Below are positions 16,953-61,474 of a stretch of 64,000 nucleotides of DNA, piece by piece (position 1 is the first letter of the stretch; each line of letters opens with the position of its first letter). Source of the DNA: an uncultured Candidatus Saccharibacteria bacterium (GTDB taxonomy: Bacteria; Patescibacteriota; Minisyncoccia; Phycocordibacterales; WO2-35-19). The notes under the pieces are model-generated. The model had not been told where the DNA came from. It saw nothing but the letters and a program-made list of their open reading frames with translations, and searched no databases. The stretch lies in the NCBI GenBank assembly GCA_964392285.1, contig CAYMOW010000002.1, forward strand, positions 1-64,000, written 5' to 3'. The translations under genes and the position numbers were made by a program.

Positions 16953-17087
16953 TGCTTTTTTGAAAAGCCACCATTTTATTTTTTAGTTTGTAATTCATAT
17001 AAATATCGACTTAATATATTATAACTCGATTGAAAAAGCTTTTCTATGCCATTTTCTACTACGGGATTCATATTACAATTTTCAATC

Positions 17088-17369
17088 TTAAATCTTAAAA
17101 TTGATTTGCGGTATGCCGACCGGACTGTTCCAACCAAACTCTGAGCGCAAAAAGACCATAATGCCCCAGATAGTCGTCAGCACAAAGAGACCGATTATAC
17201 CCCAGATGAGCAGGTTTTTGCTCTCTTTGAGCTCCTTCTCATTGCCCGCAGCTCGAATAAACCGCCCCACTCCAAGCACAAAGACCAAAAAGGCCACCAC
17301 GCCCAAAAACGGAATAATCTTCATTCCGAGGTCGGTGAACATCTTTACTACTTCGCCAAGGTTTTTCAT
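17088..17369 (-). CDS. small two-TM protein, paralog 5
   Basis: Core VFVLGVGRFIRAAGNEKELKESKNLLIWGIIGLFVLTTIWGIMVF. Confidence 0.65.
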   Translation of the reverse strand: MKNLGEVVKMFTDLGMKIIPFLGVVAFLVFVLGVGRFIRAAGNEKELKESKNLLIWGIIGLFVLTTIWGIMVFLRSEFGWNSPVGIPQINFKI

Positions 17370-25666: not shown

Positions 25667-26761
25667 TTATTCAGCACAGATAACATAATGCAGATATTCT
25701 GTCGTCTTGCTTGCTGTATAATTCCTGTTTTCTGATTTATCAGCCCTAAAACGACTATGCTCTTTTGTAAAACATCCATATTTACCCCGGAGACTCATTA
25801 TTTCTCTTATATCATCGGGGGTCATCAAACCTTCATTGTTATAACTCAAAAATATATATTTGACTTTGGCCTTCAATATCAAATCTTTAAACGATTTTCT
25901 GACCTGGTTTTTTGAACAATACAAAGATTTCTGATCAGTATAATCTCGTAGACCAGTCTTCCCATATATTTTAGGATTATCATACCTAGCAATTGTCTCT
26001 AAAATATGATAATTCGTTGCATATTGACGATGATTATATGGTGGGTCAAGATATAAAACATCTCCGTTAATTTTTTCGACGATTTTATTTATATCCATAT
26101 TGAAAATTTCGTGATCTTGTTCATTAACAATCAATTCTGCTGGTTTCAAGATCAGACTACTTTGAGCTGTCTTTTTTAGATTCTTCAGGAAAGCTCCGTA
26201 GACGGATGCTGTGTTCGCATATTTATCAATCGATTCGACTAAACTAGCGATCAAAAAATAATATTCATCATCAGAGATTAAATCTTTCTCTTTCCAATTT
26301 TCAATTTTTTGACGAATAGCGTCGCACCGCATTCCATTTTCATTTGAAAAATATTGTCTTGATTCTTCTTTGTCTTTGGTTTCTCCGAGACAATAATTTT
26401 TATAGATAAAGCCTTTTACACCCTCCAAATTTGATAGATATTCACAAACAAAATCTTTACGTTTTTCTGTGTCAATATTTTTTAGACCAGCAATTTCTTT
26501 TGTTAGTTTTATAAATTTTAATTCCTTATGATTCCCAACATAGTGCCTATTCAATACATAACTGTAATATTGAATATCGTTAGAAATTATTTTGTAACCT
26601 CTTTTCTTGAAATAACTACCGACAACTCCAGTTCCAGCAAATAAGTCACAAAAAACCTTGCAGTTTTTATCAACTACTTTATTAATTGATTCTTCCAAGA
26701 ATTCTAACAAAGATAGTTTACTGCCGATATAATTCATAAATTCATGATAACATACCCGCAA
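25667..26761 (-). CDS. Dam-family (alpha-class, D12) N6-adenine DNA methyltransferase
   Basis: N-terminal NYIGSKLSLLEFL and FCDLFAGTGVVG (motif I); C-terminal LYLDPPYN (motif IV DPPY). Confidence 0.8.
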   Translation of the reverse strand: MRVCYHEFMNYIGSKLSLLEFLEESINKVVDKNCKVFCDLFAGTGVVGSYFKKRGYKIISNDIQYYSYVLNRHYVGNHKELKFIKLTKEIAGLKNIDTEKRKDFVCEYLSNLEGVKGFIYKNYCLGETKDKEESRQYFSNENGMRCDAIRQKIENWKEKDLISDDEYYFLIASLVESIDKYANTASVYGAFLKNLKKTAQSSLILKPAELIVNEQDHEIFNMDINKIVEKINGDVLYLDPPYNHRQYATNYHILETIARYDNPKIYGKTGLRDYTDQKSLYCSKNQVRKSFKDLILKAKVKYIFLSYNNEGLMTPDDIREIMSLRGKYGCFTKEHSRFRADKSENRNYTASKTTEYLHYVICAE

Positions 26762-28589: not shown

Positions 28590-29771
28590 ATGATAATTCT
28601 GGGTATAGAGACAAGTTGTGATGAGACGGCAATCAGTGTCGTCAGAGCAGAGGGCGATGTCGACAAGCCGGTTTTTGAGGTGCTTGGAAGCAGTGTTCAG
28701 AGTCAGATTGATATTCACAAAGAATACGGTGGCGTCTTCCCCACCCTCGCCAAACGTGAGCACATCATAAATTTGCCTGCTGTTTTAATTGAGGCACTTA
28801 GGAAGGCAAATTTAATTTCCAATTTTCATTTTTCAATTTTCAATGAATCACAAAACCCCGAGGAGGTCTGGCAAGATTTTTTTGATAAATTGCCAAAAGT
28901 AGATGTCGACATGATTGCTGTAACCGTTGGCCCAGGACTCGAACCCGCCCTGTGGACAGGTATAAACTTCGCCCAAGAGCTGGGGAAAAGATGTGGAAAA
29001 CCTGTGGTTCCAACCAATCACATGTTGGGCCATATTGCTTCGGTGCTATTGAACAAACAAATAACCTTTCCAGCTATCGCCCTACTTGTAAGTGGCGGCC
29101 ACACTGAACTGGTCTTACTCAAAAGTTGGGCTGACAAAAAGAAAATCGGCGAAACTCAAGACGACGCGGTCGGCGAAGCTTTCGATAAGGTAGCTAGGAT
29201 GCTTGGCCTGCCCTATCCGGGTGGACCAGAAATTTCCAAACTAGCCGAAGAAGCCCGGATTCAAAATATTAACCTGGAGAAAAAGTTACCAAGACCAATG
29301 ATTAATTCTGGTGATTTTAATTTTTCTTTTTCGGGTTTAAAAACTGCTGTTTTGTATTATTTGAGAGACCTGACCTCACCCCTGACAATGGGTCCTCTTC
29401 CGTCTGGAATTCCCTCCCCTGATCAAGGGGAGGGATCAAAGGGTGGGGTGTCTTTTCAGACAAAATTAGCCGTAGCGCGAGAATTTGAAGACTCGGTCAT
29501 CGAAACTCTACTAAGCAAAACTCGCAAAGCTATCGATGCTCATTCGCCAAAAAGTTTGATCATTGGCGGTGGTGTCATCGCCAACAAAGCTCTGCGAGAA
29601 AACTTTCTCAAACTCAAAGAAGTCTACCCCAACCTCGAAATTTTCATACCCGAAAGAGAACTCACGACCGACAACGCCACCATGATCGCAATGGCCGGAT
29701 TTATAGAATACTTGCAAAATAAAACCGAAATACCCGCCAAGCTCGAAGCTCGCGGGTATTTGGAAATCTAA
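28590..29771 (+). CDS. tsaD: tRNA N6-adenosine threonylcarbamoyltransferase TsaD (Kae1/OSGEP family)
   Basis: MIILGIETSCDETAISVV start 2 nt after tRNA-Ser (the table ORF begins inside the tRNA); HMLGHI, SGGV, and a C-terminal ASKD fold. Contains an extra segment, roughly 40 aa, EALRKANLISNFHFSIFNESQ.... Confidence 0.85.
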   Translation: MIILGIETSCDETAISVVRAEGDVDKPVFEVLGSSVQSQIDIHKEYGGVFPTLAKREHIINLPAVLIEALRKANLISNFHFSIFNESQNPEEVWQDFFDKLPKVDVDMIAVTVGPGLEPALWTGINFAQELGKRCGKPVVPTNHMLGHIASVLLNKQITFPAIALLVSGGHTELVLLKSWADKKKIGETQDDAVGEAFDKVARMLGLPYPGGPEISKLAEEARIQNINLEKKLPRPMINSGDFNFSFSGLKTAVLYYLRDLTSPLTMGPLPSGIPSPDQGEGSKGGVSFQTKLAVAREFEDSVIETLLSKTRKAIDAHSPKSLIIGGGVIANKALRENFLKLKEVYPNLEIFIPERELTTDNATMIAMAGFIEYLQNKTEIPAKLEARGYLEI

Positions 29772-38393: not shown

Positions 38394-40040
<1,647 letters not shown>

Positions 40041-40144
40041 TTACAATTTTCAGTTTTCAATTTTCATTAAATTTCCAATTTCTCAATGTTTGAAAATTAG
40101 AAGATTTAATCATTTATTGAAAATTTTAAATTATAAATTGAAAA

Positions 40145-40498
40145 TTAATTGATAATTGCCAATATATTCTCCTCCTTCAAAATGTAATATTCTTCGCCTG
40201 CGTATTTTATTTCATCATAACCGTAGCGAGAAAAGACGACCCGATCACCAACCTTGACCGAAGGTTTGATCAAAACCCCATCATCCCACCTGCCCTCGCC
40301 CACCGCTACAACCTTGCCTTGCTCAGGCTTTTCCTTATTAACAGTGTCGGGAATAATAATACCCGAAGCTCTTTTATCGCCGATCTCTTCTGAAGCCAAA
40401 GGCCTCAAAACCACTCGATCGCCCAAAGGCCATAAGCCAAAAGTCGATCCGGACTTGGCTACAGACTTGTTTGTTTTTTTCTTTAATGGCTTTTTCAT
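40145..40498 (-). CDS. groES: co-chaperonin GroES (with a roughly 20-aa basic N-terminal extension in this ORF)
   Basis: LWPLGDRVVLRPLASEE...GKVVAVGEGR...GDRVVFSRYG. Confidence 0.85.
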   Translation of the reverse strand: MKKPLKKKTNKSVAKSGSTFGLWPLGDRVVLRPLASEEIGDKRASGIIIPDTVNKEKPEQGKVVAVGEGRWDDGVLIKPSVKVGDRVVFSRYGYDEIKYAGEEYYILKEENILAIIN

Positions 40499-40868: not shown

Positions 40869-42617
40869 ATGAACCTTTTGGCAAAAATTTCATCTTTTTT
40901 TGATGCTTTATTCGTCCGTCCCCGAAGTCTAAAACTCTCAGAGAAAGGACAGGGCGTGATCGACTCAATGCGACCAACCGAAAAACTTTTGTTTGGAATC
41001 TTTGGTCTTGTTGTTGTTTTCAGTAGTCTGATCTTGCTTTTCAAAGTTCACCGATTCTTTCTGATCGAAGTACCGACTTATGGCGGAAGCTTCACTGAGG
41101 GTGTCGTCGGCAATCTGCGTTTTGTCAATCCGGTCCTAGCTATTTCCGATACCGACAAAGAGTTGTCGAGCCTTATTTACTCCGGCATCCTCAAGAAAGA
41201 TTCGTCTGGCGACTTAGTCAACGACCTGGCCGAAAGCTGGGCAATTTCAGAAGACGGACTCACCTATGAGGTCAAAATCCGCGAAGATGCTTTTTTCCAC
41301 GACGACCGACCAGTCACAAGCGCCGACATCGCCTTCACGATCGAAAAGGTGCTTGACCCAACAATCAAAAGTCCGCGCCGCGCCAACTGGGAAGGTGTGG
41401 AGGTAGAAATAATTTCCGAAAAATCTTTGCGCTTTGTGCTCAAAAAACCTTTCGGACCTTTTGCTGAAGCCCTGACTCTGGGCATATTACCCAAACATAT
41501 TTGGTCCAGTGCCTCTTCAGAAGAGTTTCCTTTTAGCGAATGGAATGTCAGCCCGATCGGCTCCGGCCCCTACCAGATCAACAACGTCAAGCGCAATTCA
41601 GCCGGTATTCCGAACTCCATCAGTCTTTCGGCTTGGTCAAAATACACACTCGGTAAACCATTCATAAAAAATCTAAACTTCAAATTCTTTTCAAACGACG
41701 AGGAACTAAAGAAAGCTTACGAAACCAAAGAAATCGACAGCTTGGCTCGGATTGGCAAAGAATCAGCTCGCCTGCTCGACCAAAAAGCAGATTTTATTTC
41801 GACTGCTTCGCCTAGAGTCTTCGGAGCTTTCTTCAACCAAAACTCGGCCCCCGCCTTTTTGAACAAAGAAGTCAGGCAGGCTCTGGATCTTTCGGCACCC
41901 AAAGACGAGATTGTCGAAAAGATCCTCTTTGGCTACGGCTCGGTTGCTCTCGGACCATTACCAGAACAAAACCGCCAGACCGCAGAAGAGAGCGACAAAA
42001 CTGCCGAAGCCAGAGAACTACTCAGATCACACGGCTGGCAAATCGATGAAGCCGATGGCATTCTCAAGAAAAAAACCAAATCAGAAACAGTGGCCCTAAG
42101 TTTCGTCTTGAGCACCGCCGACACACCCGAACTCAGACAAACGGCGGAAATACTCAGATCTGCCTGGCAAGCAATCGGAGCCAGTGTCGAAATCAAAGTT
42201 TTTGAAGCGAGCGACCTAAACCAAAATGTCATCCGCCCTCGAAAATACGATGTCTTACTTTTTGGTCAGGCAATTTCAAATCCGAGCGAACTTTATTCTT
42301 TCTGGCACTCCTCGCAACGCAACGATCCGGGCCTCAACGTACCACTTTATGCCAACATCACTGCCGACAAAATACTCGAGGAATTGCGCATCGGAAGCAA
42401 AATCGATCAAGAAGAAAGAATCAAAACTCTAACTCGCGAAATTACGAACGATGTGCCGGCGGTTTTCCTTTTTGTCCCCGACACCATTTATTTACCAGCC
42501 AAAAACATCAAAAACATTTCTCTACCCAAAGTTTCAAGCCCGAGCGAACGCTTCAATTCTATCAACAATTGGTTTATCGAGACCGATAAAGTTTGGAGCT
42601 TTTTTGCTCGGATATAA
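40869..42617 (+). CDS. ABC transporter substrate-binding protein, family 5 (oligopeptide/OppA-like), membrane anchored
   Basis: N-terminal TM, LVNDLAESWAISEDGLTYEVKIREDAFFHDDRPVTSADIAFTIEKVLDP. Confidence 0.75.
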   Translation: MNLLAKISSFFDALFVRPRSLKLSEKGQGVIDSMRPTEKLLFGIFGLVVVFSSLILLFKVHRFFLIEVPTYGGSFTEGVVGNLRFVNPVLAISDTDKELSSLIYSGILKKDSSGDLVNDLAESWAISEDGLTYEVKIREDAFFHDDRPVTSADIAFTIEKVLDPTIKSPRRANWEGVEVEIISEKSLRFVLKKPFGPFAEALTLGILPKHIWSSASSEEFPFSEWNVSPIGSGPYQINNVKRNSAGIPNSISLSAWSKYTLGKPFIKNLNFKFFSNDEELKKAYETKEIDSLARIGKESARLLDQKADFISTASPRVFGAFFNQNSAPAFLNKEVRQALDLSAPKDEIVEKILFGYGSVALGPLPEQNRQTAEESDKTAEARELLRSHGWQIDEADGILKKKTKSETVALSFVLSTADTPELRQTAEILRSAWQAIGASVEIKVFEASDLNQNVIRPRKYDVLLFGQAISNPSELYSFWHSSQRNDPGLNVPLYANITADKILEELRIGSKIDQEERIKTLTREITNDVPAVFLFVPDTIYLPAKNIKNISLPKVSSPSERFNSINNWFIETDKVWSFFARI

Positions 42618-42647
42618 CAAAAAATCAAAATTATCTTAAAAAGTCTA

Positions 42648-44545
42648 AAATGAAAAATCGAGAAAGAATCAGAAGCTATCATGCACCTAGCGCGCCCACC
42701 ACAAGACCAAGGCGTGCCCGTCGCACATTTACCACCACCGGAGCCGGTCAGACCCCAAGCAAACCCCGAAGCAGTTCGTCGCGTTTTAGCCGACCGCCCA
42801 AACGCCGGCCTTCGCCGCCACCGGTCAATCCAGAAAAAGAATTAGTGCGCAAGCCGGAAACTCTTGGCTTACCAACGGTGGGCAAAAATATCCGCATCAT
42901 CCCGCTCGGTGGCGTGGAGGAAGTCGGACGCAATATGACCGCAATCGAAATCGGCGACGATATTGTGGTTGTCGATGCCGGTTTTCAATTTAAAGATGAG
43001 GATTCGCCTGGTATCGATTACATCTTGCCCAACACCAAATACCTTGAGGAAAGAAAAGAGAAGATCCGCGGACTCTTTATCACCCACGGTCACCTCGACC
43101 ACATTGGCGGTATTCCCTTCATCATTGATCGCATTGGTTATCCGACGGTCTACACCAGGCAATTCGGTGCCATTATGGTCCAAAAACGCCAAGAAGAATT
43201 CCCTCACCTCAAACCCCTCGATATCAAAGTTATTGGAGGTAACGAAACCATTACCTGTGGCAAAATCCGAGTCAGCACCTTCCCCATTTCGCACACTATT
43301 CCGGATTCGATGGGTCTTGTGATCGAGACACCTTACGGCAATATCGTCTTTATCGAAGACGTGCGCGTCGACAACGTCAAGGGTGTGCCGACCGAAGAAG
43401 AAGAGCGCCAATACGAACGTTTCAAAAATATGAATGTCTTGCTTTTGACCATGGACTCGACTTCGATCGAAAAACCCGGCTTCTCTCTCTCCGAAAACGT
43501 CGTAGCTGAAAACATCGAGCGCTTCATCAAGGAGACCAAAGCTCGACTCATTATCGGCACCTTTGCGAGCCAAGTCGAGCGCATTATCTCAATCATCAAA
43601 ACGGCCGAAAAATACGGCAAGAAAATTGCCGTTGAAGGCAGAAGTATGAAAACCAACCTCGAGATTATAAAGCAACTAAAACTGGCCGAAATAACCAACA
43701 TCATCCCAATCGAGGAAATAGAAAATTATCCGCCTGACCGCATTGTGATGCTCGTCACTGGCGCCCAAGGCGAAGAATTTGCAGCTCTGATGCGTATCGC
43801 AAACAAAACTCACAAATATGTCCGACTCAAAAAAACCGATACTATCCTGCTCTCTTCTTCGATTATTCCGACCAACTACAAAGCCATCGTCAAACTCAAA
43901 GACAATCTTTATCGTTCAGAGGCCAAGGTCGTAACCTATCTCGACTCAGACATCCATGCCTCCGGTCACGGCAACCGCGATGAATTGCGCTGGATCCACA
44001 ATCAGATCAAGTATCGTTTCTTTATGCCGGTCCACGGCAACCATTATATGCTCTATCAGCATGCCGAATTGGCTCAATCAGTCGGCACCCCAAGAGAAAA
44101 CATCGTCATTCCCGACAACGGTTCAATCGTCGAAATTTATGATGAGGGCCAGAAGATCAAAGTCCTGAAAGAAAAGGCCCCGAGCGATTTGGTTATGGTC
44201 GACGGCTTCGCCGTTGGTGGCGTCCAAGAAGTGGTTTTGCGCGACCGACAAATGCTGGCCGAAGATGGGATGTTTGTTATCGTCGCAGTCATCAATCTCA
44301 AGACCGGACGCCTACGCAAATCACCAGACATCATCTCACGCGGATTTGTTTATCTACGCGAATCCCAAGACCTACTAAACCAAACTCGCCTCCTGATCAA
44401 AAAGACCATCGAGGATTCGACCCACAATACCAACCCGATCAATTTTGATTTCGTCAAAAACCAAGTCACCGACTCGGTCTCGCGCTTCCTCTTCCAACAA
44501 ACCGCCAAGAAGCCAATTGTTATACCAGTCGTCCTCGGATTGTAA
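42648..44545 (+). CDS. rnj: ribonuclease J (MBL + beta-CASP) with an Arg/Ser/Pro-rich N-terminal extension
   Basis: IRIIPLGGVEEVGRNMTAIEI, THGHLDHIGGIPF. The first roughly 85 aa are MKNRERIRSYHAPSAPTTRPRRARRTFTTTGAGQTPSKPRSSSSRFSRPPKRRPSPPPV; ATG at 42648 was chosen over the table start, which overlaps oppA. Confidence 0.85.
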
Positions 44546-45723: not shown

Positions 45724-46227
45724 TTAAGGTTCCAAAATACCTTCCGTCTCACCATCAATTGAGATGACAACCCGATCGATATCTGGCAGAGCCATAAGTG
45801 TATTCTCGATCTGTGAGCGGATGGCCGCAGCATTGCAAGAACCAGCCAAACCTTGATTTAGAGCAGAATTAAAATCAACATAAGATGTACCGTCTAGTAT
45901 TTCAAATTTCTGAATCAAGGTAGCTGGATTGACAGCAGAAAAATAGTCAACCTGCTCTTCCGGCCTCAAACCCTCAATCAAAGCCGACAGGGCCCCAGGG
46001 CCCAAAGTTTCGGCATTCAAGACTTTGCGATTTAGAGGCGCTTCGGCCAAACAACTTTCCAGTTCTGCGACTGATTTTTTTACAAAAAAGACTTGAACCT
46101 CCTTTTCCCATTCAAAAGCATTGGCAACCGGAGTCGGCTCGGTTCGACGGCCAAAATTCGCAACCAACAAAAGAAAGAGCAAGCCACAGGCTACAACGTA
46201 AACGAAATATTTCAAAATTTTTGTCAT
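45724..46227 (-). CDS. secreted GerMN-like domain protein (putative)
   Basis: N-terminal TM/signal, and a C-terminal ...ALPDIDRVVISIDGET pattern resembling GerM/Gmad2 domains. Confidence 0.35.
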   Translation of the reverse strand: MTKILKYFVYVVACGLLFLLLVANFGRRTEPTPVANAFEWEKEVQVFFVKKSVAELESCLAEAPLNRKVLNAETLGPGALSALIEGLRPEEQVDYFSAVNPATLIQKFEILDGTSYVDFNSALNQGLAGSCNAAAIRSQIENTLMALPDIDRVVISIDGETEGILEP

Positions 46228-46249: not shown

Positions 46250-46549
46250 TCAAACAACAACCTTTTTCTTTCTGGTTTTAGGTTTAACCACACTGGAAAG
46301 GAGTAAGGTAAAAATCGTCCGGACAAAACTCGAGGCTTCGCTCGAAAGTTCCGAACCCAAGAGAGTTGCGCCCTTGGCAAAACTTTTGGCAATAAACTCG
46401 GCCTCGCGCCGAGCAATGTTTGAAAGCTTTTTGACATCGCGCAAAATCGAAAGCACATAAAACAAGACCGCCAGAAGCAAACCAAAAACGGCAATCGTCG
46501 CCACACTTGCCACCGCAAAATAAATTTGCATATAAGAAAGATCGCTCAT
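46250..46549 (-). CDS. hypothetical membrane protein
   Basis: ORF with two hydrophobic segments and a lysine-rich C-terminus. Confidence 0.4.
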   Translation of the reverse strand: MSDLSYMQIYFAVASVATIAVFGLLLAVLFYVLSILRDVKKLSNIARREAEFIAKSFAKGATLLGSELSSEASSFVRTIFTLLLSSVVKPKTRKKKVVV

Positions 46550-46610: not shown

Positions 46611-47018
46611 TCATTGGATAAAGTCTACTTCAAACCCATACATCCCCATCGTACAACTACCCTGCATCAAACCTTCGGCGGGCGAACCGACCTCAATGTC
46701 TGTATTGCCAGAAAAATCCAGACTCCTACTTATACCAACACTTGGGATCCTGACTGAAACAGAACAATCAAACGAGCCTTTAGAGTCAAAACGAAAAACG
46801 GTCGGCAGACCGGCTTTGGCAACGCTTCGCCTCGGAGAGTATCCGCCCTTGGCTCTTATATTTACAACCTGCACCCCATCAACAAATTCGACATTCGCCG
46901 TCGGTGCTTTGGTGTAGTTCGCCTCTCTGGGTCTGCTTTCTTGACTCTTACCCTGACCAAATAAGAACAAGAGGCCGACTAAGGCCAATAAAGTTATTCC
47001 GATCAGAGCAGTTTTCAT
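46611..47018 (-). CDS. secreted cupredoxin-like/metal-binding domain protein (putative copper-binding partner of the cop operon)
   Basis: Signal peptide, and a beta-rich domain ending GSCTMGMYGFEV (a Cys/Met pair). It lies immediately downstream of the HMA-permease and copA on the same strand. Confidence 0.4.
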   Translation of the reverse strand: MKTALIGITLLALVGLLFLFGQGKSQESRPREANYTKAPTANVEFVDGVQVVNIRAKGGYSPRRSVAKAGLPTVFRFDSKGSFDCSVSVRIPSVGISRSLDFSGNTDIEVGSPAEGLMQGSCTMGMYGFEVDFIQ

Positions 47019-47031
47019 AAAATTTATTCTA

Positions 47032-48054
47032 TCAGAAATTAAAAATCGGTGACAAAAGACCGACTGCCACCAAACTATTCAGAAGATTAAACAGAGCAAA
47101 GAGGATAACTAGAAGACCGGCTGATTTGAAGAAAACTCCAGCCCAAGAACTTTTGTGTATGGCAAAAGACGAAAAGCTGAGGAGCGCAAGTATTGGCAAG
47201 GTACCGAGAGCAAAGACAAACATCGTGAGCGCGCCGTCCAAGAAGGAGCCCGAAGAAAGAGTGTAGATCTGCATTGATTGGGTAAAACCGCAAGGCAAAA
47301 AGAAGGTCGCGACGCCAACTAAAATCGGCGAAAGAGAATGGCTAAGCTTTGAAGCATTGTGAACGTGCTTGCCAATAAACTTTGGCATACGCGGCTCTAG
47401 CCTCTTGGCCCAAGGAAAGATATCAAGCAAATTTATCCCGAGCACAACCATGACCAAACCAATGATCAAGCTCAGAACAAAAGAGAGGCTCGGACTCAAA
47501 GTAAAGGCGGTACCCATGGCACCAATCACTCCACCCAACAAAAAGAAAGAGACTAGTCGACCAAGATGGAACATAGTTTGGGGACGCAACTTATCGCCTT
47601 CTTTGGCAAAAGTTGCCGACATCGAAAGCACCAGACCGCCCACAACCGCCATACAAGAAGAAAGCGAGGCAATCACCCCAACAAGAAAGACGGTGCCAAA
47701 AGACAACTTACTCGCATCAACCCAATTTACTATGCCAAGCTTTTGGAGCAGAACAAAAAGCACACTCAGAAAAAGAGCAATGGGTATAGCCCATCTAAAG
47801 TCCGACCACTTGCCTGACTTTGACTCTTTTTCCAAAGAAAGTTTGTAGCCGTGCGGTATAAGTGGTCGCGAGAGGAACTCGGCAATTTCCGCCGCGCTCA
47901 GATCGCCAAAATCACCAACAACCTGCATCGTTTGGGTTTTTAGGTGAGACTTTGCGCTTTCAACCCCGGCAATATTGCCGACTTCGCTTTCGGTCAACAG
48001 GACACAAGAAGCGCAGTGCATACCATGAATATGAAAAGTGTAATTCTGGCTCAT
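47032..48054 (-). CDS. HMA (heavy-metal-associated) domain fused to a polytopic membrane permease-like domain
   Basis: [20 protein letters not shown] (MxCxxC), followed by about 8 TM segments. The start overlaps the copA stop by 4 nt. Confidence 0.65.
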
Positions 48055-50396
48055 ATTTTTTTGGATTTTATTCGTAATGAATTCGCTACAACCGAGACAC
48101 TCGACATCGCCATGGCAAAGCCGGCAAAGATTGGGTTGAGTAGCCAGCCGAAAAAGGGATAAAAAGCTCCAGCCGCAAGCGGGATACCCACAACGTTATA
48201 AATAAAAGCCCAGAACAAATTTTGCCTGATACCGCGCATGGTCATCTTTGAGAGCCGGGTAGCTTTGACAAGTTTGGAGATGTCGCCATGAAGCAGAGTG
48301 ATCCCGGCCGATTCGATTGCCACATCAGTACCAGTCGCCATAGCAATACCGACATCGGCTTTGGCCAAAGCCGGAGCATCGTTCACCCCATCGCCAGCCA
48401 TCGCAACCACAAGACCTTCTCTTTGCAGAGCCTCAATCTTGCGTAGTTTGTCCTCGGGCAAGACATGAGCGACGACCTCATCGATACCGACCTCGTTTGC
48501 AATATAACGCGCGGTCTTCTCTTCATCACCAGTGAGCATTACAACTTTGATCCCGAGTTTGTGGAGGTCGGAAACAGCTTGCTTTGCTTCTGGCTTTACC
48601 TCGTCGGCAACCATCACCAAGGCTAACACTTTTTCTTTTGTAGCCAAGATAACCGGTGTTTTGCCCTGAGCGGTTAGCTCGTGCAGTTTGGTCTGTTCAA
48701 AATCGAGAGCGAGTTCGTCTACAAGTTTTGTATTGCCGGCAAAGTATTCGACTCCATCGATCAGCCCTTTGATACCCTTCCCTTGCAGATTTTGAAAATT
48801 GACCACTTCCGCAAGATCCAAATTTTTGGCTTCGGTCCTTAGAGGATCTGCGGTCCTTACAGGATCTACGACCCTTTCAGGATCTGCGACATAATTCAAG
48901 ATGGCGCGAGCGATTGGGTGCTCGGACTTTTTCTCCAGCGAAGCCAAGATTGAGATCACTTGCGAGTCGGTAAAGGTTGAAAAGTTTATGACATCGACGA
49001 GAGTTGGAAAACCTTTAGTCACAGTGCCGGTCTTATCGACAACTACTGTATTTACTTTGTGCAATTTCTCCAAAGTCGCCGCATCTTTGATGAGGATGCC
49101 TTCCTTGGCACCCTTGCCCACCCCGACGATTATAGCGGTCGGCGTAGCCAAACCCAGAGCGCAAGGACAAGCAATGACCAGGATACCCACAAATGAGACC
49201 AGACCAAAAGAGAGAGCTTCGGCAAAACCCAAATATTGCGAACCGACAAAGAGCCAGAGCCCCAAGGTAACAAAGGCGAGCACAAGCACAACCGGCACAA
49301 AAACACTGGAGATTTTGTCCGCAAGCGCTTGGATCGGCGCTTTGCTGCCTTGGGCCTCTCTTACCATTTTTACAATCTGAGCGAGCAGGGTTTCTGAGCC
49401 AACTTTGGTCGCTTTGAAAACAAAAGAGCCTGTCGTATTGATAGTCCCCGAAACAACGCTGTCACCGACCGATTTTTTCACCGGCATTGGCTCACCGGTC
49501 ACAAGCGATTCATCTACAAAAGAAACACCATTGGTTATCAGACCATCGACAGGAATCTTTGAACCGGGTTTGACCACAATCAAATCGCCATGCTTTACAT
49601 CATTCACAGAAATTTCGATCTCTTGACCGTCGCGTATCACCAAAGCAGTTTTGGCCTGAAGATTGAGAAGCTTTTCGATAGCATCGCCGGTCTTTACCTT
49701 TGAACGAGCTTCGAGATACTTGCCGAGAGTAATAAAAGTGATGACAACAATTGTGACATCATAATATTGGTGATCGACATTTACAAAATTCTCAAGCAAG
49801 GTCTCGAAGGCTGAGATCACAAAGCTATACAGATAGGCTGCGCTTGTACCGATACCAATCAGGGTATCCATGTTGGCCTTACCAAAACGCAGAAAACGAT
49901 AGACACCAGAAAGATACGGTCGGCCAATAACAAACAAAATATAAGTCGCAAACACCGGCAATAAGTGATGCACAAAATCATCGACTACCGGACTCATTTC
50001 GGCTGCCAACTCATATTGCATCAAAACATCCCAGATCATTATGGCGATACTAAAGATCGCAATCGGCACCGCCGAGAACAACCCTTTCTTCATACTTTGT
50101 AATTCGGCAAGCTTCTCCACCTTTGACTCACTGAGTCCGAGATGCTTCGCGTGCTCGTCTGCGCTCATACCCATTGCCTCGGCTGTGTCTTCAACAAGAG
50201 AGTAGCCCAACGGTTCGATTTGTTTTGACAGATCTTTGGCGTGCAACTTCTGCTCATCAAAACTTATTTTGGCCGTTTCCGTACCAAAATTTACTTCAAC
50301 ACTATTTACGCCACTTTCTTTTTTGAGCGTCTTTTCGATAATATTGGCGCAAGACGCACAATGCATTCCTTTTATCTTAAAAATTTCTTTTCTCAT
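48051..50396 (-). CDS. copA: copper-translocating P1B-type ATPase CopA
   Basis: N-terminal [19 protein letters not shown] motif ([12 protein letters not shown]), DKTGTVT, and [10 protein letters not shown]. Confidence 0.95.
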
Positions 50397-50443
50397 ATCT
50401 TATATTTTTTATTTTTCGTAGTTTTCGTATAATTTTAGTCTAT

Positions 50444-50707
50444 TTATTTTCTCTTGAGTCGATAAACCTCCAGCACTTCTTTGACCGCCTTGCTTTCGCT
50501 ACCCTTCTTCATCTGATGTACGACGCAAGTATTGAGATGGTTCTCAAGTAAAGCGTCCTCAACGCTCGAAAGCGCCCGTTTGACCGCCGAAGTCTGGGTA
50601 ATAACATCGATACAATAGACATCTCGGTCGATCATTTCTTGCAAACCTCTGACCTGACCTTCAATAATTTTGAGCCTCCTAATTATACGTGATTTGGGTG
50701 TAATCAT
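50444..50707 (-). CDS. csoR: CsoR-family copper-sensing repressor
   Basis: LKRLKIIEGQVRGLQEMIDRDVYCIDVITQTSAVKRALSSVEDALLENHL: the RcnR/CsoR fold with Cys and His ligands. Confidence 0.85.
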   Translation of the reverse strand: MITPKSRIIRRLKIIEGQVRGLQEMIDRDVYCIDVITQTSAVKRALSSVEDALLENHLNTCVVHQMKKGSESKAVKEVLEVYRLKRK

Positions 50708-50845
50708 ATTTTTGAAAATTGAAAATTATAAATTGATAATTCTATACTATACCCCCCTAGGGTATTAGTCAAGTCAAACCAAAACCACTTCTGGGGATAA
50801 TCCAAAAGTGGTTTTGGCCGGTTTCGGCTTTGGTCGAACCAGAGA

Positions 50846-51481
50846 TTAATTGGCTTTAGACAGAGCTTCTCTCAAAATCAGACGAAACTCATCAACCGAG
50901 CTGGGATTTTTTATTTGTTCACCATTCAGAAAGAAGCTCGGCGTGCCCTGTAAACCAGATTTGAGCGAGTGAACTCTCTGCGCCGAAACAAAATTCTTGA
51001 CTTCCTTGCTACGCCAATCGAGATTGAATTTTTCTACATCGAGATTCAAAAGTTTGGCATAGTTTTCAAAAAGCGGTGCAATATCGGAAACATTTGACCA
51101 CTCGTTCTGTTTTTCAAACAAAAGATCGTGCATCTCCCAGAACTTACCTTGGCGACCGGCAGCTTCCGCTACCCGAGCAGCAAACTCGGCGTTGGGATGG
51201 ATAGCATTGAGCGGAAAATGTCTGTAGACAAAAGCCACCTCATTGCCAAATTCGGCCGAGAGTTGTCGTAGGACTGGATAATAAGCCCGACAAGCCGGAC
51301 ATTGAAAGTCGCTGTATTCCATAAGCACTACCTTAGCCTCCTTGTTGCCTTTTATATTATCGAGTGGATGCAAAACTCCCTTTTCAAAAGGTGGCTCAAT
51401 CTTGGGTCCACCACCAAAACTCGCAAGCAAAACGATACCAACCACAACCAACACACCAACTATCCAATAAGTTTTTTTCAT
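50846..51481 (-). CDS. DsbA-family thiol:disulfide oxidoreductase, membrane anchored
   Basis: N-terminal TM, and KVVLMEYSDFQCPACRAYYP (the CPxC active site). Confidence 0.8.
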   Translation of the reverse strand: MKKTYWIVGVLVVVGIVLLASFGGGPKIEPPFEKGVLHPLDNIKGNKEAKVVLMEYSDFQCPACRAYYPVLRQLSAEFGNEVAFVYRHFPLNAIHPNAEFAARVAEAAGRQGKFWEMHDLLFEKQNEWSNVSDIAPLFENYAKLLNLDVEKFNLDWRSKEVKNFVSAQRVHSLKSGLQGTPSFFLNGEQIKNPSSVDEFRLILREALSKAN

Positions 51482-51552: not shown

Positions 51553-51999
51553 TCAAAAATAAATAAGATACCAGACTAGGAGTGCCAAGGCGCCCCACCA
51601 ACCAAGGTCAGAAAAAATAAGACTGACTATTATTTTGTTCTGCCAAGAAGCGGGCAAAAGCTCCTCCGCTCGACCCTCCCTCTCTTTTTTCAAAAGATAT
51701 GGGCTGACGCGAAAAGATAAAAACAAGCCATTGAGTATGAGCACGATAGCAATCAGAGCCAAGTACATTGGCAGACCAACAAAAGGTTCGCTCCTAAAAA
51801 ATATACCGCCCCCGATAATCGCAAGAAAAATACCCGCCCAAATCATCGGCTTAGTGACTTTGTGGGTGCGCGTGGTAGCCTCGGTCCAGTAATTTGATTT
51901 TCGCCCTAAAAATCCATGAATATCAATCACCGTCACAGCTCCAAGTCCAACCACAAACCCAGCGACAAGCAAGAACAATCCGATGAAATCAAGAATCAT
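51553..51999 (-). CDS. hypothetical membrane protein (4 TM, no cysteines; not DsbB/VKOR)
   Basis: Hydrophobic ORF; Cys-free, so unlikely to be the DsbA redox partner. Confidence 0.45.
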   Translation of the reverse strand: MILDFIGLFLLVAGFVVGLGAVTVIDIHGFLGRKSNYWTEATTRTHKVTKPMIWAGIFLAIIGGGIFFRSEPFVGLPMYLALIAIVLILNGLFLSFRVSPYLLKKEREGRAEELLPASWQNKIIVSLIFSDLGWWGALALLVWYLIYF

Positions 52000-52050: not shown

Positions 52051-52467
52051 CTAAGAGTTGAGGTAAGTAATGGTCAATTGCAAAACAGTGGCAAAAGAGA
52101 CCCACAAGAGATATGGAATGTTCGCATAAACTACCCACCTCAGATCACTAGAACCTTGAGGCACAAGTCGCCATATTAGGACCATCCCCCAGACCAAAGT
52201 AGCCAGAACCAGCAAAATATCGATCGAGGCCAAAAGATTGTTTTGCAGACCAAATTGAATCGGTGTAAAAGCAAAATTAAAAAACAGATTCAAAACAAAA
52301 GGCAACGCCACAAATCGCGGAATCTTGCGCTTCAAGGCAGAGTAAAAGACTTTACCAAAAGAAATGGCAATGATGGCATAAAGTACCGTCCACACCGGAC
52401 CAAAGACCCAACTCGGCGGCGCCCAAGATGGTTTGATCAAATCTATATACTTAGTTGTTTCGTTCAT
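52051..52467 (-). CDS. tspO: TspO/MBR-family tryptophan-rich sensory protein
   Basis: PSWAPPSWVFGPVWTVLYAIIAISFG: the canonical TspO N-terminus and a 5-TM layout. Confidence 0.85.
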   Translation of the reverse strand: MNETTKYIDLIKPSWAPPSWVFGPVWTVLYAIIAISFGKVFYSALKRKIPRFVALPFVLNLFFNFAFTPIQFGLQNNLLASIDILLVLATLVWGMVLIWRLVPQGSSDLRWVVYANIPYLLWVSFATVLQLTITYLNS

Positions 52468-61364: not shown

Positions 61365-61474
61365 AGTGGTTTAATTTTCAATTTTTAATTTAGAATTTTC
61401 AACAAATGATTTAATTTAAAATTTATAAACATTGAAAATTTAATGAAAATTGATAATTGATAATTCTAAATTTC

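Follow-up and report, generated by a model that had tools for sequence, protein, structure and literature searches.

What is the role of the two genes that follow the genes of a copper sensor and a copper pump in the genome of a Patescibacteria (Candidate Phyla Radiation, CPR) bacterium? The locus in question lies on the minus strand of the window, i.e. the whole 64,000-nucleotide stretch of DNA analysed here, in which the list of open reading frames (ORFs) gives, head to tail, csoR, copA, a gene for a membrane protein with an HMA and a DsbD_2 domain (the HMA-DsbD_2 protein), and a gene for a CupA-type cupredoxin of 135 amino acids (aa). To judge by the names of homologues, the organism belongs to Patescibacteria near Paceibacteria. 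As predicted from the sequence, this is a copper-detoxification operon under CsoR control: its first half is an ordinary CsoR-CopA system, and its second half brings together a DsbD_2/COG2836 protein and a CupA-type domain. It is very probable that this is a copper operon and that its two accessory proteins act together physically. As for what the pair does, it is tentatively proposed that the HMA-DsbD_2 protein and an outward-facing CupA-type cupredoxin could constitute a new ATP-independent copper relay beside CopA, occurring in split or fused form in Patescibacteria, Clostridia, and Actinomycetota.

The four ORFs are tightly packed 3' of one promoter and agree with the original prediction, which had described an operon of csoR, copA, an HMA-permease gene, and a small-protein gene with ATGA coupling. 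The csoR gene (50707..50444, 87 aa) is followed by copA (50396..48051, 781 aa), the HMA-DsbD_2 gene (48054..47032, 340 aa), and the CupA-type cupredoxin gene (47018..46611, 135 aa), the product of which has the C-terminal end ...GSCTMGMYGFEVDFIQ. The copA stop codon overlaps the HMA-DsbD_2 start codon in the ATGA at 48054..48051, and the CupA-type gene starts 14 nucleotides (nt) past the HMA-DsbD_2 stop codon, leaving a spacer of 13 nt. No obvious Shine-Dalgarno sequence was seen at any of the four operon genes.

The sensor and the pump are typical members of their families. CsoR matches PF02583 in Pfam (E = 1.8e-26) and a RicR-like family in NCBIfam (1.8e-22), and all members of the CsoR Cu(I) ligand set, Cys32, His57, and Cys61, are present. 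CopA shows HMA, E1-E2 ATPase, and HAD domains in Pfam and a TIGR01511 match in NCBIfam (3.3e-181), and it carries the motifs MHCASC, TGE, CPC, DKTGT, SEHP, GDGVND, YN(x4)P, and MAMSS, which together make up the P1B-1 Cu(I) signature; the copA product is a predicted P1B-1 Cu(I)-exporting ATPase. It has a single N-terminal ferredoxin-like HMA domain (PF00403, 7e-17) and no cupredoxin domain. The sigma-70-like promoter (50744..50772, minus strand) is composed of the -35 box TTGACT (50772..50767), a 17-nt spacer, and the -10 box TAGTAT (50749..50744), and matches the consensus at 9 of 12 positions in a promoter scan. Its spacer is occupied by the G/C-rich palindrome ATACCCTAGGGGGGTAT (50749..50765, minus strand), which has the form of a canonical CsoR operator, the GC-rich type known from B. 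subtilis and related sites. Of 62 related loci, 59 have the pattern TACCC-N(1-8)-GGG+TA at most 160 nt 5' of csoR, and on the csoR strand the pattern occurs just 62 times in 1.04 Mb of loci. In the C-H-C ligands of CsoR, the GC-rich palindromic operator, and the P1B-1 type of CopA the locus resembles the csoR-copA-copZ operons of B. subtilis and L. monocytogenes, but it differs from them by the lack of soluble CopZ, since the ORF list contains no free-standing HMA ORF within the operon; the sole chaperone-like HMA domain is instead tethered to the DsbD_2 protein, and a cupredoxin gene is added.

The nature of the last gene product was established from sequence and fold comparisons, which identify it as a CupA-type cupredoxin with a predicted binuclear Cu(I) site. 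The Cupredoxin_1 profile (PF13473) gives 23.2 bits, below its gathering threshold of 27, and most homologues carry a precomputed PF13473 match. The best match among 177,635 PDB sequences is S. pneumoniae CupA (4F2E, with 2MRY as another PDB entry; E = 3.8e-5, 23% identity), followed by the cupredoxin metal-binding domain of pneumococcal CopA (4F2F; E = 0.1). The AlphaFold2 model (mean pLDDT 81.6) begins with a helix at residues 2-21, continues with a linker of low confidence, and has at residues 43-134, with pLDDT of about 90, a beta domain of nine strands, for which Foldseek ranked 4F2E first (E = 5.4e-8, TM 0.85 on the target, rmsd 1.6 A over 92 columns) and 4F2F second, with CuA domains, B. 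anthracis Cupredoxin_1 structures, and nitrous oxide reductase at lower ranks. Within this beta-barrel (46617..46892, minus strand) the predicted Cu(I) ligands are Cys85 (46766..46764), Cys122 (46655..46653), Met124, and Met126, which in a 28-sequence alignment correspond to CupA Cys74, Cys111, Met113, and Met115, reported to be the ligands of its high-affinity bis-thiolate and low-affinity Met-rich sites (PMC5646241, PMC7558416). Cys85 and Met126 are invariant in this alignment and Cys122 and Met124 are kept in at least 90% of the sequences, while C-x-M-x-M is present in 233 of 244 members of the cupredoxin family. The protein had been regarded as a possible novel Cu(I) binder with type-1-like ligands; its Cys...Cys-x-Met-x-Met set is rather the known binuclear Cu(I) site of CupA. 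It contains exactly two Cys (85 and 122), Met124 and Met126, and zero His, and a type-1 (blue) copper site of the His-Cys-His-Met kind was rejected because histidine is absent from the protein.

CupA itself is portrayed as confined to a few streptococci (PMC7558416, PMC5646241). The cupredoxin family is much larger: at E <= 1e-3 it comprises 1,820 cluster representatives, relatives are encoded in at least 527 species genomes, and the small protein has at least 95 homologues, with E values down to 1.8e-81. Such breadth of the CupA fold, together with the predicted outward orientation discussed below, may be mildly surprising to a copper specialist.

The partner of the cupredoxin is built of three parts, all encoded on the minus strand: the HMA domain at residues 6-59 (47878..48039; PF00403, 4e-9) with the motif GMHCxxC, in which G11, M12, H13, C14, and C17 are invariant; an extra helix, TM0, at residues 90-108 (47731..47787), seen in hydropathy; and a DsbD_2/UreH-like six-helix core at residues 121-321 (47092..47694), where PF13386 matches at 1e-32 with 114 bits against a cut-off of 24.9 and covers profile positions 1-198 of 199. 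Both accessory proteins belong to metal-linked families, as had been suspected. The HMA-DsbD_2 protein has four Cys in all, namely C14 and C17 in the HMA domain, C134 in core helix 1 (SSCMAVVGG), and C255 in core helix 4 (LPCG). Neither C134 nor P254-C255-G256 varies in an alignment of Patescibacteria, Clostridia, and Actinomycetota or in HMA-less relatives from Shewanella and Agrobacterium (Pseudomonadota), and core helix 1 reads H-C-x-x-M/L-C-G-G in Clostridia and Pseudomonadota. The fusion to HMA, described in the original prediction as unusual, is in fact standard in Patescibacteria: at least 7,562 homologues were found at E <= 1e-3, and the best 120 listed are all HMA plus DsbD_2 proteins, about 65% identical across Patescibacteria. 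The window operon is a typical member of a large family that is common in databases under generic or wrong names.

The usual database name of these homologues is "sulfite exporter TauE/SafE family protein", and if this public annotation were right, the membrane protein would be a TauE/SafE sulfite or anion exporter, the small protein an unrelated beta-sandwich, and the pair would have nothing to do with copper. Such an explanation is highly improbable, as TauE (PF01925) gives no match at E <= 0.01 in the window protein, of which DsbD_2 and HMA are the sole Pfam matches, and on the same ground the name itself was rejected; moreover, a metal-binding HMA domain is fused to the membrane protein, its partner retains the CupA Cu(I) ligands, and the pair is linked to copA and the CsoR operator in most loci. 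The DsbD_2/COG2836 family thus appears to be misnamed as a sulfite exporter in thousands of records, and correction would provide better annotation of a very common gene pair.

How constant this pair is was estimated in two samples, i.e. 80 species-level genome loci found via the small protein, all titled Patescibacteria, and 80 metagenome loci found via the membrane protein. The HMA-DsbD_2 gene is directly 5' of the CupA-type gene in 78 of the 80 genome loci, with one exception being a contig end, and the CupA-type gene is directly 3' of the HMA-DsbD_2 gene in 65/65 metagenome loci with at least 450 bp of flank. The full csoR-copA-(HMA-DsbD_2)-cupredoxin order is found in 60 of the 80 genome loci, and in the metagenome sample copA lies upstream in 45/48 loci (about 94%) with at least 2.6 kb of flank and csoR in 32/39 loci with at least 4.9 kb. 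According to these data co-conservation of the accessory genes with copA, which the original prediction had named as decisive, is borne out. In 25 of 61 genome loci other genes, 0.15 to 4.3 kb in extent, separate copA from the pair; these insertions together with the near-constant pairing indicate that the HMA-DsbD_2 and CupA-type genes are the tightest unit, usually travelling with csoR-copA.

In related Patescibacteria (L005 5393-6692; L008 3268-6893; L019 3825-6856; L020 2839-6953; L023 5547-6940) the variable genes inserted between copA and HMA-DsbD_2 encode, among others, a DUF305 protein that includes a stretch rich in Met and Gly, SHOCT-domain peptides, a DUF1573 protein, CcdA-like proteins, a small membrane protein ending ...WLSLFENSP, and a Cys-rich 326-aa protein with a CC(G/N)NS(T/V)HFPDCNHGMAMLG motif; a Pfam scan of the last two gave no match for either. 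In one Paceibacterota genome (L025 3696-12803) two full tandem copies of the operon are present, each with its own CsoR operator, and the accessory proteins of the second copy are 38-42% identical to those of the window.

Besides the split form, the same modules occur fused in one protein, which strongly argues that the window pair acts together physically. By tblastn of plasmid and chromid records an HMA-TM0-DsbD_2-cupredoxin protein of 480-490 aa with the motifs ...GCNN... and SCWMGM was found in Acetoanaerobium noterae, encoded directly upstream of copA. A search with this fusion returned about 8,000 matches, of which the best 120 are all HMA plus DsbD_2, most with Cupredoxin_1 on record and mainly from Clostridia, so that triple fusions are abundant in this group; in Clostridium thermosuccinogenes such a triple fusion precedes a P1B ATPase gene, and some Clostridial fusions possess two or even three HMA domains at the N-terminus and two cupredoxin domains at the C-terminus. 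Plasmids of Streptomyces and Mycolicibacterium encode a DsbD_2-cupredoxin fusion next to a P1B ATPase gene and a gene for HMA alone, and fused forms occur also among the close CPR-like relatives of the window pair (P0351, P0393, L038). Long Clostridial fusions (P0228, P0307, P0317) contain Cys-rich linkers or tails such as GGGCCG, GCCKPQT, and ...PLSCH.

Each module is met in other surroundings as well. The cupredoxin domain is fused to P1B ATPases in Streptomyces, Manganitrophus, and Cellulomonas, stands alone in copY-cupA-copA operons of Lactococcus, and forms tandem domains adjoining a P1B ATPase in Nostoc. HMA-less DsbD_2 relatives that keep the two invariant Cys directly follow ccoI-ccoS, of cbb3 oxidase copper delivery, on a Shewanella baltica plasmid (L088 1309-4666) and a primary-amine oxidase gene on Agrobacterium pAt (L087 2973-5684); primary-amine oxidases are copper enzymes. 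There are hints here that the whole "TauE/SafE"-named DsbD_2 family may be linked to copper.

A relay across the membrane presupposes that the HMA and cupredoxin domains face opposite sides. Hydropathy gives seven helices in the window HMA-DsbD_2 protein, i.e. TM0 and the six-helix core, and the core loops contain 12 Lys/Arg in loops 1-2, 3-4, and 5-6, on the HMA side, versus 1 in the remaining loops. Actinobacterial homologues without HMA are also without TM0 and begin at core helix 1, their charge pattern being the same, which agrees with the N-out orientation known for DsbD/CcdA cores. We infer that TM0 crosses the membrane between the cytoplasmic HMA domain and the six-helix core, which then starts at the outer face. 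In every fusion examined the cupredoxin domain directly follows the sixth core helix, with seven helices between it and HMA, and this odd number places the two domains on opposite faces. The N-terminal hydrophobic anchor of the small protein (residues 2-21, 46956..47015, minus strand) has no obvious signal-peptidase or lipoprotein cleavage site; in 92 homologues its mean hydrophobic stretch is 20.6 residues, and in 77 of them the N flank has a higher net charge than the C flank, which favours the N-in/C-out orientation. One homologue has a lipoprotein box, LASC. Thus, it is likely that the cupredoxin domain is anchored at the outer face with HMA inside. The small protein had been called secreted, and of this claim the extracytoplasmic position of the domain is supported indirectly, by the fusions and the charge bias, whereas free secretion is not, as the anchor helix of about 20 residues looks uncleaved.

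The orientation is also the point at which the pneumococcal paradigm has to be weighed, where the small protein would face the cytoplasm, as described for S. pneumoniae CupA, and would collect Cu(I) or reduce Cu(II) at the inner side of the membrane; the HMA domains of CopA and the DsbD_2 protein would receive the metal from it, and the DsbD_2 protein would be an independent permease. The best match in sequence and fold is CupA, with the same ligands, the same N-terminal single helix, and a similar operon position beside copA; such cupredoxins are fused to the cytoplasmic N-termini of P1B ATPases, and the characterised CupA and ATPase-fused cupredoxin domains are cytoplasmic, so that outside placement here goes beyond them. 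By Lys/Arg alone the anchor flanks are ambiguous, with slightly more after the helix (1.4) than before it (1.0) in the 92 homologues. Both points speak against the outward position, but they are opposed by the seven helices, the 12 to 1 loop bias, the anchor net charge, and the lipoprotein-box homologue, and further by CopA, which has an HMA domain and not the cupredoxin domain reportedly needed by CupA in its partner (PMC7558416). The cytoplasmic arrangement is therefore considered unlikely. The locus differs from the pneumococcal one in other respects as well: identity with S. pneumoniae CupA is low, the repressor is CsoR and not CopY, and the small protein has an obligate DsbD_2 partner, fused in other phyla, which pneumococcus lacks. 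A Lactococcus piscium plasmid (L086 4281-7706) carries a copY-cupA-(89-aa free cupredoxin)-copA-copZ operon. Its CupA homologue has an anchor helix with an acidic C flank and with Lys/Arg missing from both flanks; therefore even for streptococcal-type CupA the cytoplasmic orientation is not clearly predicted by sequence.

With the outward orientation of the cupredoxin domain the relay may be described as follows. At low copper CsoR, with its Cys32/His57/Cys61 site, would occupy the ATACCCTAGGGGGGTAT operator in the spacer of the sole promoter; Cu(I) binding would free CsoR from the operator, all four genes would be transcribed, and CopA would pump Cu(I) outward, as expected from family knowledge. 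In parallel, Cu(I) might pass by ligand exchange from the cytoplasmic HMA CxxC via Cys134/Cys255 to the external Cys85/Cys122/Met124/Met126 site. The module would in this manner serve as a second, ATP-independent Cu(I) outlet beside CopA, and it would also retain exported Cu(I) at the cell surface, preventing its re-entry or the oxidation of surface thiols. The proposed path is likened to the MerP-MerT mercury relay run outwards: in MerP-MerT and MerTP an HMA CxxC, an intramembrane Cys pair, and a further thiol site form a soft-metal ligand chain across the membrane, and MerTP and MerP HMA matches were also returned in the NCBIfam search. Differences from the Mer system are the non-homologous membrane part, the predicted cytoplasmic position of HMA, the presumably outward direction, and copper as the probable metal.

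The relay is favoured because all three modules are soft-metal binders, up to three HMA domains are fused at the cytoplasmic end, the H-C-x-x-M-C-G-G of helix 1 resembles a metal site in many members, the family bears the name of UreH, a group of putative Ni carriers, separate CcdA-like genes occupy the same gene islands, and HMA-less relatives adjoin ccoI-ccoS and primary-amine oxidase genes. The strong Pfam match, the six-helix core, and the Cys in helices 1 and 4 are shared with DsbD_2/UreH-like proteins (PF13386, COG2836), from which the present protein would differ in the substrate, inferred to be copper and not nickel. HMA-bearing COG2836 genes were predicted in the CsoR regulon of gut Firmicutes, together with COG2217 ATPases, as possible chaperones in a metagenomic study (PMC4938975), the only relevant paper returned by a literature search, which gave no study of the three-module system, its fusions, or its topology and no characterised DsbD_2 member with an HMA fusion or a cupredoxin partner.

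Several further facts weigh against the relay. There is no evident energy source for outward Cu(I) movement. The AlphaFold2 model of the HMA-DsbD_2 protein, calculated with a shallow alignment of 14 sequences of about 65% identity, is usable for the HMA domain, and its membrane part has pLDDT of about 45, so that it lends no structural support to a conduit; residues 84-340 compared with PDB sequences gave chance-level matches alone, with no solved homologue of the membrane domain. Five loci with the full 8 kb upstream contain the pair with neither csoR-copA nor a recognisable operator, and no second CsoR operator before the pair was detected with the strict pattern in loci without csoR-copA. 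PF02683 (DsbD_TM) matches are on record for Clostridial homologues, and hhalign against a small CcdA alignment gave E = 6.8e-4 with 27% probability, a result to be taken with caution since that alignment used 259-aa proteins (L008, L019, L020) labelled CcdA-like tentatively; these align with annotated CcdA, and the L019 member, the one scanned, has no Pfam match. In this comparison the two membrane Cys align with the redox-active Cys of CcdA/DsbD, which would suit an electron shuttle equally well. Finally, thiol-redox genes (DsbA, DsbB, AhpC/TSA redoxin-family, TlpA-family, CcdA) recur near the module; DsbA, DsbB, and redoxin genes, for instance, are near it in L022 and L077.

The last of these facts belong to the strongest competitor, in which the HMA-DsbD_2 protein acts like CcdA, DsbD, or ScsB, and Cys134/Cys255 pass reducing equivalents to the external CupA-type Cys pair; the reduced domain would then bind Cu(I) or reduce Cu(II) under copper stress, with HMA as copper sensor or electron entry. 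ScsB, a DsbD-family protein, contributes to copper tolerance. A related six-helix core with one Cys each in helices 1 and 4, the 114-bit DsbD_2 match, and the Pro-Cys kept in core helix 4 are consistent with the shuttle, and a need for it may exist in that the CupA Cys pair reportedly reduces Cu(II) and requires re-reduction "from a currently unknown source" (PMC5646241). On the other hand, the relation to CcdA/DsbD/ScsB in sequence is weak, PF02683 gives no match at E <= 0.01 in the window protein, and core helix 1 has Ser-Ser-Cys without Pro and is often H-C-x-x-M-C in homologues. Neither a thioredoxin-like domain nor a thioredoxin-fold partner is joined to the protein by fusion or by obligate linkage; the domain attached to it is HMA in up to three copies, predicted inside with the cupredoxin outside, and several islands already encode a separate CcdA-like protein. 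The electron shuttle is regarded as less probable than the relay, the sequence data being compatible with both, and the claim that the membrane protein moves copper rather than electrons falls somewhat short of an even chance. The culturable Clostridia and Actinomycetota with fusions are tractable systems for this question. If the shuttle were true, it would possibly be relevant to what re-reduces the CupA cysteines (PMC5646241).

The direction of the relay might also be reversed. In this case the external cupredoxin would capture copper and the DsbD_2 core would import it to HMA for cytoplasmic or membrane copper enzymes, as an inward Mer-like relay. The order of modules is like that of MerP-MerT, HMA-less relatives lie beside copper-enzyme biogenesis genes, and Ni transport has been reported for some members of UreH, whose relatives are putative Ni uptake permeases (PMC2667541). 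However, the genes share the CsoR operator with the exporter gene copA and hence would be induced by copper excess, when import harms, and the tight linkage with copA in about 94% of loci points the same way, making copper acquisition very unlikely.

Copper handling in the reduced genomes of Patescibacteria is barely studied, and the operon shows that a full sensor-pump set and a conserved two-gene module are kept there. The module unites the CupA cupredoxin, the uncharacterised DsbD_2/COG2836 family, and HMA domains, which were so far treated apart. If the outward relay is true, the CupA fold would be no streptococcal curiosity but a copper acceptor in wide use outside the cytoplasm, and copper handling would be common to the large DsbD_2 (COG2836) or "TauE/SafE" family, with the relatives at ccoS and amine oxidase genes included.

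Between the promoter and csoR lies an AT-rich 5' leader (50712..50741, minus strand) of about four tandem heptamers, AATTATC AATTTAT AATTTTC AATTTTC, ending 4 nt before the csoR ATG. The original prediction had noted an AT-rich repeat at the csoR promoter; its existence is confirmed, with 29 matches of the AATTTTC-like heptamer pattern in the window versus 4.8 expected, but the array sits in the leader, and the role of regulatory element belongs to the CsoR operator. Other intergenic tandem heptamers (consensus AATTTTC, 2-4 units) are at 28814-28843, 40038-40067, 40117-40146, 61373-61402, 61425-61472, 17070-17092, and 26289-26311, and several arrays stop a few bases before an ATG, as at csoR and at the ATG near 28844. 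The array might represent a leader or promoter element specific to the lineage, the genome seemingly having no Shine-Dalgarno sequences at these genes.

Upstream of the operon the window encodes a membrane-anchored DsbA-like thioredoxin (50846-51481; PF13462, 2.7e-25), a four-helix membrane protein of 148 aa without family match (51553-51999), and a TspO/MBR protein (52051-52467), and this order is kept in the closest relative, locus L001. An inverted repeat, CCAAAACCACTT...AAGTGGTTTTGG (50780..50818, minus strand), read directly between the dsbA-like gene and the csoR promoter, probably terminates the upstream transcript; the terminator scan did not flag it, its T run being short. Membership of the dsbA-like gene in the operon was rejected, as it sits upstream of the promoter/operator and beyond the inverted repeat, and a DsbA-like gene is found in 9 of 80 related loci. 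Downstream are genes for a 99-aa membrane protein without family match (46250-46549) and a Germane-domain protein (45724-46227), which are probably outside the operon because they lie 3' of it solely in L001 and L077. Farther on, an ORF at 42593-44545 resembles by eye a metallo-beta-lactamase or RNase J-type enzyme; read from the TTG start given for it, the protein has a long N-terminal extension rich in Pro, Arg, and Ser, and the real start may be farther downstream.

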